Source of the DNA: a virus
Virus record (IMG/VR): IMGVR_UViG_3300025838_000001
Coordinates: 1-64,000 of that record
DNA: 64,000 nucleotides
Strand: one strand, 5' to 3'
Shown: piece after piece, positions 2,616 through 13,648 of the stretch
Layout: each line of letters starts with the position of its first letter
How positions within the stretch are numbered: position 1 is the stretch's first letter
Position numbers and translations under genes: made by a program
The notes under the pieces: model-generated
Databases searched by the model: none
Told to the model about the DNA's origin: nothing
Seen by the model: only the letters and a program-made list of their open reading frames with translations

Positions 2616-3201
2616 TTATATCCCCCATTGATTAGCCATAGCGTTTGCGATACCAGGAAAAGTCTTTGATCTATTTTTTGCACTTGTGTTATCAGAGTAC
2701 CACTTTGGAAGCGTCTTGCCAGATGGAGTTGTTACAAAATCTCCTTTCTCTACAATATTAGTAGGCTTCAATAACGGTAACCCCGTAAGCCAAAGACAGG
2801 TAGTTTTTTGGTACCTGTCCCCAAATTGCCAAGGCTGAATTATTTGATCAGGCTTTCTATATTCAGTACTCATAATTCCAACTGGGTTTTCAATAGCCAT
2901 AACCGGAATCCCACAATTAACAATATCCATAAAAAACTTAATACCTTCTTGCTGTCTTCCATCCTCACGTTTCTTAGCAAAGTGCTTAGCTCCGGAAACA
3001 GCTAAATGAGTGCAAGGAGGAAAAAAAATAGCCATATCCCATTGCCCCCCCCCCAATCACTTTAAATATATCTTCTTGGTAATGCCATTCGGGGTGTCCT
3101 CCTGAACATGGAAGTATATCACAACTAAAAGCATTATGACCAAGCGCCCTAAATGCTTTACATACAGTTTGAGATTCTTCACACCCTATGAGTACATTCA
3201 T
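2616..3201 (-). pseudogene. C5-cytosine-methyltransferase-like gene split by a +1 frameshift in a G10 tract
   Basis: Frame A: MNVLIGCEESQ...DIFKVIGGG. Frame B: QWDMAIFFPPCTHLAVSG...AIENP...FPGIANAMANQW (PPC and ENP motifs). The frames join at the homopolymer 3045-3054. G9 would give one 194-aa ORF. Confidence 0.6.
3045..3054. repeat. C10/G10 homopolymer at the frameshift point of the methyltransferase-like gene
   Basis: Direct reading of attgCCCCCCCCCCaatcac. Confidence 0.95.
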
Positions 3202-3263
3202 GATAAATGGTGCAGGAAACCCACCGTGCTTTAGCAGCGGGATGAATGCGACCTGCTTTCGTT

Positions 3264-4601
3264 TTAGTTGTTTGAAAATGTTCCAAAGTGGAATGCTTTT
3301 TGAATATTTTTCAGTGCGATACTTTTTTTGTCTACAATCACTCTTCTGCCCAATTGATGAACTCCACCTGTTACTTTTCTTTCTCCTTCTATCCACACCA
3401 AATCCTTTGGCTGTATGGCATAACGCTGTTTGCGGATAGAAGGCGCAAAGCCTTTTCGATTGAGTTGCAATACCCGATTATTCTTGTGTTTCTGAATGAT
3501 CTCTACCGGCTCAATCCTTTGCTGATCGCCTCCACCGGCAATGACAAAAGCATCATTATAATGCGTCTTTTCTATCTGCAGTGCTATTCTGTTCACAAAA
3601 GTGATATAGCCGTAGCTTACTTTTAGATCAGGCACATCGGCCCAAAATTTCTTTCTGATAATAGCCATGTAGGTATTTGGCTTATAGCTTTTTGGTGCGG
3701 CTAATTTGAGTTTCTTTTGATGCAATCGGTCATGGCACTTTTTATGTAGTATTGCCAAGTTCTTTGCACGATTACTGCCGGTTTTATTTCTTTCCAGGCA
3801 GTGGTGAATATGTGATGGCTGGCCTTTAGTAAAGGGCTTATGGCATAATTGGCAACATCCCCTTTCTCTTGCCATCAGGTAGCTGCGCATATTCTGATAT
3901 CCGTACATATCACCCTGCTGATAATCCACACCTTCAATTTGAAAATTCTCAATTTTGGCAATATCGAAATTGGCTACTTCGATGGTAACACTACTGATGG
4001 GCAGTACTTTCTTTAACTGCCTGATGATCTTTAGATGGGTGTCATAACGCCGTTGGGTAGATGGCGGCAACCATCCTTCTTTTTTCTTACGATTCAAAAA
4101 ACGTGGTTTACGATACCAAAGTTTGTTCCTACGACCTCTGCGGTACATGCGTCTTTCAGTCAGCCGTTCAGAAGTCTTGCCATCCATAACTACGGTTCCA
4201 CAAGCAAGCTCTTGAGTTGCCGATACGCATGAATACCCAATATTCTGATAACCGCTATCAATACCCATCTGTACGTCCTGTATCTTGTTCTCACAAACAA
4301 AATTCAGGCGGATGGTAAAAGGATAACAGGTAACCACACTGGCTCTTTGAGATTTAAGCAGCTTGCGAGCTTTAGCCTGGCTACAGGGCATGAGCGGTGA
4401 TCCTTCAATGGATAATACATACACAACGGCTTTAGGCCCACCTGTATGTTGGTGTAGATCCACATCGAGATTGTTAGCAGAGGTTTTTGAGCCTGCCACA
4501 CTAAGAGTTTCCTCTTTGTTTAATGGCAGACCACAGTTGCTACGGACTTGTGGAGCATCCGTAGGTGTGTTCGTTGTCGTTCTCTTTGCTAACTGCTGCA
4601 T
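3264..4601 (-). CDS. iscB: IscB, RuvC-HNH RNA-guided nuclease (OMEGA system, Cas9 ancestor)
   Basis: PLMP domain VVYVLSIEGSPLMPC; RuvC-I GIDSGYQNIGYS; Arg-rich bridge helix RRMYRRGRRNKLWYRKPRF; RuvC-II VTIEVANFD; HNH CQLCHK...HIHHC...N...LHKKCHDRLH; RuvC-III THYNDAFVIAGG. The true start is probably the GTG at 4424 (386 aa). Confidence 0.9.
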   Translation of the reverse strand: MQQLAKRTTTNTPTDAPQVRSNCGLPLNKEETLSVAGSKTSANNLDVDLHQHTGGPKAVVYVLSIEGSPLMPCSQAKARKLLKSQRASVVTCYPFTIRLNFVCENKIQDVQMGIDSGYQNIGYSCVSATQELACGTVVMDGKTSERLTERRMYRRGRRNKLWYRKPRFLNRKKKEGWLPPSTQRRYDTHLKIIRQLKKVLPISSVTIEVANFDIAKIENFQIEGVDYQQGDMYGYQNMRSYLMARERGCCQLCHKPFTKGQPSHIHHCLERNKTGSNRAKNLAILHKKCHDRLHQKKLKLAAPKSYKPNTYMAIIRKKFWADVPDLKVSYGYITFVNRIALQIEKTHYNDAFVIAGGGDQQRIEPVEIIQKHKNNRVLQLNRKGFAPSIRKQRYAIQPKDLVWIEGERKVTGGVHQLGRRVIVDKKSIALKNIQKAFHFGTFSNN

Positions 4602-4693
4602 AAATTCTAAAATTTAGTGGCCCTCTAATCAACCAATTGCTCTTGCAGATCACTCCGCAAGCCCCTTAGGCTTTAGCCTAGGGGGTGATTGAC
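4425..4693 (-). ncRNA. Candidate IscB omega-RNA (HEARO-type) scaffold
   Basis: Lies immediately 5' of the IscB-homologous region. The first 59 annotated codons have no IscB counterpart. Hairpins at 4662-4684 (9 bp plus bulge) and 4540-4564 (7 bp). Inferred from position only, not from a covariance-model search. Confidence 0.5.

Positions 4694-12046: not shown

Positions 12047-13647
<1,601 letters not shown>

Positions 13648-13648
<1 letters not shown>

Follow-up and report, generated by a model that had tools for sequence, protein, structure and literature searches.

Where does translation of an IscB nuclease begin when its gene runs into the RNA that guides it? The question is raised by a 64,000-nucleotide (nt) stretch of viral DNA (IMG/VR record IMGVR_UViG_3300025838_000001, positions 1 to 64,000; here called the window), whose minus strand carries an iscB open reading frame (ORF) of 445 codons at 4601 to 3264. 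A sequence-only reading of this DNA had placed an omega-RNA on the minus strand, from 4693 to about 4425 and thus overlapping the 5′ part of the annotated ORF, and had taken the annotated 5′ end to be erroneous and GTG 4424 to be the likely true start. The overlapping RNA is borne out by the analysis presented here; the proposed start is not. We consider it probable (at roughly 0.72) that the locus is a non-autonomous OMEGA element in a phage, in which iscB starts at ATG 4601, inside the scaffold, and a single RNA segment serves as both scaffold and message.

The ORF encodes a recognizable IscB. Its conserved core occupies codons 60 to 445 (window positions 4424 to 3267; 386 residues) and was matched by Pfam RRXRR (residues 60 to 230, 1.5e-57), by Pfam HNH (residues 250 to 295, 7.7e-7), by the NCBIfam equivalog guided_IscB (residues 60 to 355, 291.2 bits against a cutoff of 175), and by solved IscB structures in PDB at E values of about 1e-32. 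The phmmer alignment paired A58 of the query with residue 2 of OgeuIscB, so that similarity to characterized IscBs begins at residues 58 to 60, as had been claimed. The architecture is that of an IscB, with an N-terminal PLMP/RRXRR region, a split RuvC domain, and an inserted HNH domain. Residues D115, E208, H266, H267, H290, H347, and D350 are invariant across 70 homologues and align with the GIDPG, HYHH, and DHYLDA motifs of OgeuIscB. Judged by these residues, the RuvC and HNH core is intact.

The omega-RNA is real. The Rfam HEARO model (RF02033) matched the minus strand at 4693 to 4454 with 119.9 bits (gathering score, 83; E = 1.9e-25) and was covered over positions 1 to 211 of 211, so the match is not truncated. 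The same family was matched at the equivalent relative position in 4 related viral loci and also in 19 more distant classic IscB loci. The 5′ edge of the scaffold, 4693, is the first base beyond the upstream gene's TAG stop. When 65 distinct close-clade scaffolds were aligned, a consensus structure of 64 pairs in 13 helices emerged; these pairs were formed in 93.7% of cases, compared to 73.7% in shuffles and 35 to 44% in slid-partner controls, and none of 500 shuffles reached the observed value, although such shuffle-based figures overstate the independence of sequences that share ancestry. Compensatory changes, affecting both sides, occurred at 49 of the 64 pairs, and the 278-nt stretch folded better than all 200 of its shuffles (minimum free energy z = −3.87). 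Both stems picked out by the sequence-only reading belong to this consensus. The hairpin at 4684 to 4662 (CCCCUAGGC/GCCUAAGGGG, 9 bp with one bulged base) is helix 2, 85.9% paired, and the stem CTACGGA/TCCGTAG (4564 to 4558 with 4546 to 4540) is helix 6, 98.8% paired, each with compensatory changes. An alternative CCACA/TGTGG pairing, proposed alongside them, exists in the window, but it is not conserved (50.5% of cells paired versus 46.7% in shuffles) and was set aside.

The scaffold extends beyond the region described by Rfam; the RF02033 model has been noted to lack the downstream elements (Meers et al. 2023). Just 3′ of the model's end lies terminal hairpin 1 (4454 to 4439, CACC aaCAUACA GGUG), which is consensus helix 11 and has 4 pairs, all with compensatory changes, 90.7% paired. 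It is followed in the scaffold alignment by terminal hairpin 2 (4438 to 4428, GGC cuaaa GCC), of which some relatives have a longer CAGG...CCUG version. Helices 12 and 13 also show compensatory changes and are 67 to 70% paired, a figure depressed by misaligned length variants. In position, the two terminal hairpins match those of OgeuIscB's omega-RNA (PMC9640706). An H-type pseudoknot (4448 to 4418) involves the loop of terminal hairpin 1, in which CAUACA (4448 to 4443) pairs with UGUAUG (4423 to 4418) over 6 bp; the 3′ strand extends from the second base of codon 60 through codon 61 to the first base of codon 62. At least 10 covarying variants were found, including CAAACA/UGUUUG, CGUACA/UGUACG, CAUAAG/CUUAUG, CGAAUA/UAUUCG, and CACAAA/UUUGUG. 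Pairing in the pseudoknot amounted to 93.1%, a level that none of 500 shuffles attained (shuffle value, 77.4%), and double changes were counted in 52 cells where 13.3 were expected. It is absent from the classic IscB loci that bear a Shine-Dalgarno sequence. The two terminal hairpins and the covarying pseudoknot therefore define a scaffold of 276 nt, from 4693 to 4418, and the newly recognized pseudoknot redefines its 3′ end.

With the scaffold delimited, the position of the start codon can be addressed by comparison with homologues, which fall into two layouts. In the classic layout (core identity of ≤44% to the window), the protein starts M-VYV, stop codons lie just upstream, and AAGGAGG precedes the ATG by 7 to 8 nt. 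Three classic-type loci (L088, L039, and L043) have no ATG; in them AAGGAGG-N7-TTG, located about 25 nt ahead of the VYV codons, places a TTG two codons before VYV, and this TTG is probably the start. In the clade of the window (45 to 86% core identity), there is no ATG at the classic position, and the frame is open back to the column of ATG 4601. This ATG (4601 to 4599) lies in an A/U-rich junction of the scaffold (4621 to 4602), after scaffold base 92.

The start codons were compared among 86 unique clade loci with sufficient upstream sequence. Between the ATG 4601 column and codon 60, frame 0 was open in 82/86 and contained a stop in 4/86, whereas both other frames contained stops in 86/86, with means of 4.5 and 4.8 per sequence. 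Upstream of ATG 4601, the scaffold contained about 2.8 stops in every frame. The window and these 82 clade members thus lack in-frame stops all the way back to the ATG inside the scaffold and do not share the classic layout. The 81 aligned extensions held no stops at all, compared to a mean of 91 and a minimum of 67 in 300 column shuffles. Length variation changed character at the same point. The segment upstream of the ATG had 39 distinct lengths spread evenly over the three classes modulo 3 (34, 24, and 28 sequences); downstream of it, 17 of the 21 distinct non-modal lengths were in frame and 4 were out of frame, against 13:14:11 upstream. This contrast has a P value of about 1e-5 (Fisher, 5e-16 on sequences), and the 4 out-of-frame lengths belong to the same few exceptional sequences.

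The start column itself is kept. It reads ATG in 76/86 and GTG in 1/86; in 6/86 the ATG is lost and replaced by an in-frame ATG 1 to 4 codons upstream (the proteins then beginning, for example, MKQKL, MKKQKL, METKQQQL, MENIQQQF, or MIRQQL), so that the column is conserved or compensated among the relatives. In-frame stops occur just upstream of it in 85/86. The 20 nt before the ATG are 74% A+T, compared to 58% in the rest of the scaffold. The named sources of the clade are mostly Bacteroidota, and initiation in Bacteroidota does not rely on Shine-Dalgarno pairing. The extension is under coding-type constraint, and there is no conserved internal start. From the frame and start conservation we infer that ATG 4601 is used and that translation of iscB most probably begins there.

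These data bear directly on the start at GTG 4424 that had been proposed. Under that explanation, the ORF start would be an annotation artifact, the omega-RNA would be a pure 5′ untranslated region (UTR), and a 386-residue IscB (M-Y-V-L-S...) would begin at codon 60, which is indeed GTG (4424 to 4422). Homology to every characterized IscB does begin at residues 58 to 60, classic relatives do start M-VYV right after the terminal hairpin, and curators routinely trim N-terminal insertions of IscBs to the PLMP motif (PMC13180657). The extension is predicted to be disordered and is not conserved at the protein level, and in two relatives (L029 and L030) the core is intact without an intact extension. 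An untranslated region would, however, not be expected to keep its frame open in 82/86, to tolerate in-frame indels only, and to avoid stops, nor does this explanation account for an upstream ATG that is conserved or compensated.

Codon 60 itself speaks against a start at that position. The column reads GTG in 51/86 and TTG in 1/86, while 34/86 have a codon that is not a start codon (GTT, GTA, GTC, GCT, ACT, or ATC), and 16/86 have no in-frame ATG, GTG, or TTG within the 12 codons upstream of it. GTG is nevertheless strongly enriched: it makes up 74% of the Val codons at this position, compared to 11.3% among the 1,549 counted over these genes (P = 7e-33). The enrichment was considered as the mark of a start codon and rejected, because pairing in the pseudoknot constrains the codon and the covariation accounts for the bias. 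Codon 60 changes with the loop of terminal hairpin 1; where the loop is CAUAAG the codon is GCU, ACU, or GUU, and where the loop is CAUACA it is GUG. A Shine-Dalgarno function for the bases encoding "HTGG" (ACAGGUGGG), upstream of GTG 4424, was likewise rejected, since GGUG is the 3′ strand of the covarying hairpin stem (variants UCGA/UCGA and GUUC/GAAC). No conserved Shine-Dalgarno sequence precedes codon 60 in the clade, and the apparent AGGUGG, with its GGUGG, is a strand of that stem. We therefore regard an exclusive start at GTG 4424 as distinctly unlikely.

A further explanation is that two isoforms are made, a long one from ATG 4601 and one of classic length from an internal GTG, at 4424 or 4463, with the ratio set by folding of the scaffold and pseudoknot. 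In its favor, 69/86 have a start-type codon among the 6 codons preceding codon 60, and the GTG at the codon-47 position is nearly invariant; the core also stays intact in the relatives whose extension is broken. Both GTGs, however, occupy positions constrained by the RNA (the conserved 3′ linker of HEARO and the pseudoknot), where conservation needs no start function. Both also lie in or next to stable structure and have neither an A/U-rich nor a Shine-Dalgarno context, and 20% of relatives have no candidate near codon 60. Production of two isoforms is, on this balance, unlikely.

Several points count against a start at ATG 4601 in a working element and are gathered here, along with the shared ancestry of the compared sequences mentioned above. 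GTG or TTG is present at codon 60 in 52/86 relatives. A few relatives (L029/L030, L147, L150, and L116) have an intact core behind a broken extension, and an internal start must therefore be usable in them unless these copies are dead. Together, these leave room for a second, shorter isoform or a minor internal start. At the level of the peptide, the extension shows no excess variation at third codon positions and hence no selection at the amino acid level. The literature searched, which did not cover Altae-Tran et al. 2021, contains no description of an IscB start embedded in omega-RNA. Finally, no empty site was found in a relative: in viral contigs, the upstream protein led to 2 distant loci, and a degenerate junction pattern returned 0 matches. 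Given this and the absence of TnpA from the window, the element is only presumptively mobile today.

The exceptional relatives differ in what interrupts them. In L029/L030 (3001 to 3060 region), a 393-codon core is intact behind an extension with two stops and a frameshift; if alive, these copies must start internally, for example, at the GTG of "DVN," equivalent to window position 4463. L116 carries a frameshift and relies on a different in-frame ATG. In L147 (about 400 to 430) and L150 (about 30 to 40), an in-frame TAG occupies the very position of a CAG/Gln in all relatives (GG*SLRV and M*KL), and the cores of 386 to 410 codons stay open; these are possibly dead copies, sequencing errors, or phages in which TAG is recoded to Gln.

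What kind of peptide would the extension be? The segment used twice, from 4601 to 4425, comprises iscB codons 1 to 59 (MQQLAKRTTTNTPTDAPQVRSNCGLPLNKEETLSVAGSKTSANNLDVDLHQHTGGPKAV) and the 3′ two-thirds of the scaffold, with 40 of the 64 consensus pairs inside it, so that folded RNA and coding sequence would overlap by about 180 bases. The claim that the first 57 to 59 codons have no IscB counterpart stands for the characterized IscBs; it does not extend to about 100 uncharacterized relatives, in which the extension is conserved. Codon position entropies are flat in the extension (0.875, 0.972, and 0.85), in contrast to those of the core (0.875, 0.704, and 1.398). The missing third-position excess means that ordinary protein selection does not act on the peptide; that it is translated is argued from conservation of the frame, of stop avoidance, and of the start. 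AlphaFold assigned residues 1 to 57 a predicted local distance difference test (pLDDT) score of 38 to 53, and the fold starts at residue 60; the 59-residue tail is thus predicted to be disordered. The tail is kept translatable while its sequence is dictated by the RNA. Across the loci compared, the layout appears common to a large clade of about 100 loci, mostly Bacteroidota-associated or viral contigs. A match of residues 42 to 57 to TbaIscB/HfmIscB was considered as a precedent for a translated extension and rejected, as the matching sequence is the bdSUMO tag (...LHQTGG). It is this tag alone that carries the top PDB match (chains 9k30_A and 9k2z_A) past the PLMP motif in the upstream direction; the tag end ...LHQTGG resembles ...LHQHTGG of the window by chance, which is a trap for automated annotation.

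The literature searched treats omega-RNA as a 5′ UTR, and the novelty of the layout is provisional. If the start inside the scaffold is true, pipelines that trim to PLMP mis-define a whole clade of compact nucleases (386-residue core) and their RNAs. The locus would also be a natural case in which a structured RNA and an ORF share sequence while the peptide is without selection of its own, which would be useful for studying the evolution of dual coding. It would further suggest that a switch built into the locus decides between making guide and translating nuclease, and would show how a mobile element can adapt to hosts without Shine-Dalgarno initiation.

The element in which this gene resides has definable ends. 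In all, 180 related loci were gathered from viral, genome, and metagenome collections and compared to the window by blastn. Homology set in exactly at 4693 in most loci and ended between 3193 and 3259, and the flanks beyond both ends were unrelated among the loci compared. The element, an IscB mobile element of the non-autonomous IS200/IS605 type, accordingly spans 4693 to 3202 (minus strand); in plus-strand orientation, its left end is near 3202 and its right end is at 4693. It is inserted between the TAG stop (4696 to 4694) of a replication-initiator-like gene (Lin1244_N/DUF4373-like), which lies upstream of it, and the ATG (within 3201 to 3197) that opens a methyltransferase-like gene.

At the left end, 3′ of the iscB stop codon, is a nested subterminal hairpin (3256 to 3212, minus strand; GCAGG ucgc auucau CCCGCUGC uaaa GCACGGUGGG uuu CCUGC). 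Inspection by eye, with no formal covariation count, showed that its position is kept, with compensating changes, in many clade members; stem variants in relatives include GGCAA..TTGCC, GTCGC..GCGAC, and GTGACA..TGTCAC. Immediately outside the left end is the target-adjacent motif ATGAA (3201 to 3197; TTCAT on the plus strand), which doubles as the opening codons (ATG AA-) of the methyltransferase-like gene. Copies of one element at different sites (L108 versus L109 and the window versus L068) diverge right 3′ of ATGAA, and in about 20 loci ATGAA, ATAAA, or GTAAA occurs 17 to 22 nt past the GGTTTYC of the hairpin. The uninserted site would read ...AAAAAGTAG|ATGAATG.

The label "non-autonomous" is used because no TnpA was found in the window: a tblastn search of all 64 kb with an IS200 TnpA sequence as the query returned a best E value of 2.5. 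The window also contained no second copy of the element. Taken with the frameshift in the neighboring methyltransferase-like gene and the failure of the searches made to find an empty site, these results could suggest a decaying or domesticated relic, whose RNA and ORF are kept by descent only and do nothing in the phage. We consider this very improbable. The ORF runs its full length with all catalytic residues invariant, the scaffold clears the Rfam threshold and each of its helices is able to pair, and intact copies of the left-end hairpin and of the target-adjacent motif are retained. The absence of TnpA is, moreover, usual, as most IscB elements lack it (Meers et al. 2023). The element itself belongs to a known category, an ordinary IscB/omega-RNA insertion of the type already described.

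The ends of the element also suggest what its RNA would target. In known IscB elements the guide lies outside the transposon's right end and is transcribed by read-through (Meers et al. 2023). Here, the putative guide segment (...UGAAAAGAAAAAGUAG) occupies 4709 to 4694 on the minus strand, immediately 5′ of the first scaffold base, if a guide length of about 16 nt is assumed as in known IscBs. The replication-initiator-like gene contributes its last codons and its TAG stop to this segment, whose sequence is found once in the window. With the scaffold edge at 4693 directly after this TAG, the earlier suggestion that the DUF4373-like gene supplies the guide with its 3′ end holds up.

Read-through transcription from the replication-initiator-like gene would yield one RNA, in which the last ~16 gene-derived bases (4709 to 4694) would serve as the guide and the next 276 bases (4693 to 4418) would fold into the scaffold. 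The target matched by the guide of this 4709-to-4418 RNA would be ...TGAAAAGAAAAAGTAG followed by ATGAA. IscB and the RNA would then cut genome copies carrying the uninterrupted junction ...AAAAAGTAG|ATGAA, and such cutting would favor retention or copying of the element, as has been shown for GstIscB; in phage co-infection it may serve homing. On the same transcript, translation would compete with scaffold folding and IscB binding, which would allow autoregulation. For the clade as a whole, we tentatively propose a bifunctional scaffold: ribosomes would load at the A/U-rich junction and translate through ~40 conserved pairs, folding, IscB binding, and the pseudoknot would compete with translation, each transcript would become either guide or message, and IscB would repress its own synthesis. 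This fuller scheme is possible, though we hold it to be somewhat doubtful.

Comparison with known systems places the window element among IscB insertions and brings out what sets it apart. OgeuIscB (PDB 7XHT and 7UTN; HEARO RF02033) shares the PLMP motif, split RuvC, bridge helix, HNH, and C-terminal beta-rich domain; its RNA belongs to the same family, is encoded immediately 5′ of the gene and on its strand, and has the same helix order, ending in two terminal hairpins. By contrast, the core in the window is shorter (386 versus 496 residues), its ORF starts about 180 nt earlier, inside the scaffold, and it lacks a Shine-Dalgarno sequence and ATG after the terminal hairpin. The additional pseudoknot is not in the solved OgeuIscB RNA, which stops at terminal hairpin 2. 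The GstIscB element ISGst5 of Geobacillus stearothermophilus likewise carries the scaffold on its right end with the guide outside, requires read-through from a co-oriented gene upstream of it, and is non-autonomous without TnpA (Meers et al. 2023). Its experimentally determined target-adjacent motif, TTCAT, 5′ of the left end (Meers et al. 2023), is the plus-strand motif at the left end in the window. Unlike ISGst5, the window element lies in a phage genome rather than a bacterial chromosome, occurs there once, and has its probable start codon within the RNA; a role in retention or homing is only surmised for it.

TnpB and its omega-RNA (reRNA) of IS200/IS605 and IS607 elements provide a precedent for DNA that encodes a nuclease ORF and a guide scaffold together, as the TnpB omega-RNA overlaps the TnpB ORF (Meers et al. 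2023). The TnpB ORF overlaps its RNA at the 3′ end, with the guide placed 3′ of the scaffold; in the window it is the 5′ end of the ORF, start codon included, that overlaps, with the guide placed 5′ of the scaffold. The protein family also differs, TnpB having RuvC only. IscB homologues carried by isolated phages (Clostridium phage c-st and the Ralstonia phages Adzire and Simangalove) are annotated "HNH endonuclease." They align only from query residues 55 to 60 on, as expected of a classic start, with 28 to 42% identity, and none is in the clade of the window.

The window is the genome of a tailed phage, as judged by the presence of terminase, portal, virion protein, DnaB, and GroEL genes, and the element lies in its replication module. 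The GroEL-type chaperonin is encoded in full length at 12050 to 13648 (plus strand; PHROG 5725, 1.2e-143). The insertion replaced the entire upstream translation initiation context of the methyltransferase-like gene with the transposon left end. This gene (2616 to 3201, minus strand; MNVLIGCEESQ...) is split by a frameshift into two overlapping ORFs, at 2986 to 3396 and 2616 to 3056. The frameshift site is a run of ten G residues (3045 to 3054), which may reflect either phase variation of the homopolymer or an error in sequencing. Neither half was matched in Pfam or NCBIfam; a search of GenBank phage DNA with 2.9 kb around the locus returned distant methyltransferase matches only and no close relative, and showed that the gene resembles phage DNA methyltransferases. 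Elsewhere among the related loci, RAGATH-18 and skipping-rope Rfam matches occur near classic IscB loci on viral contigs (L051, 1691 to 1751; L061, 4684 to 4812).

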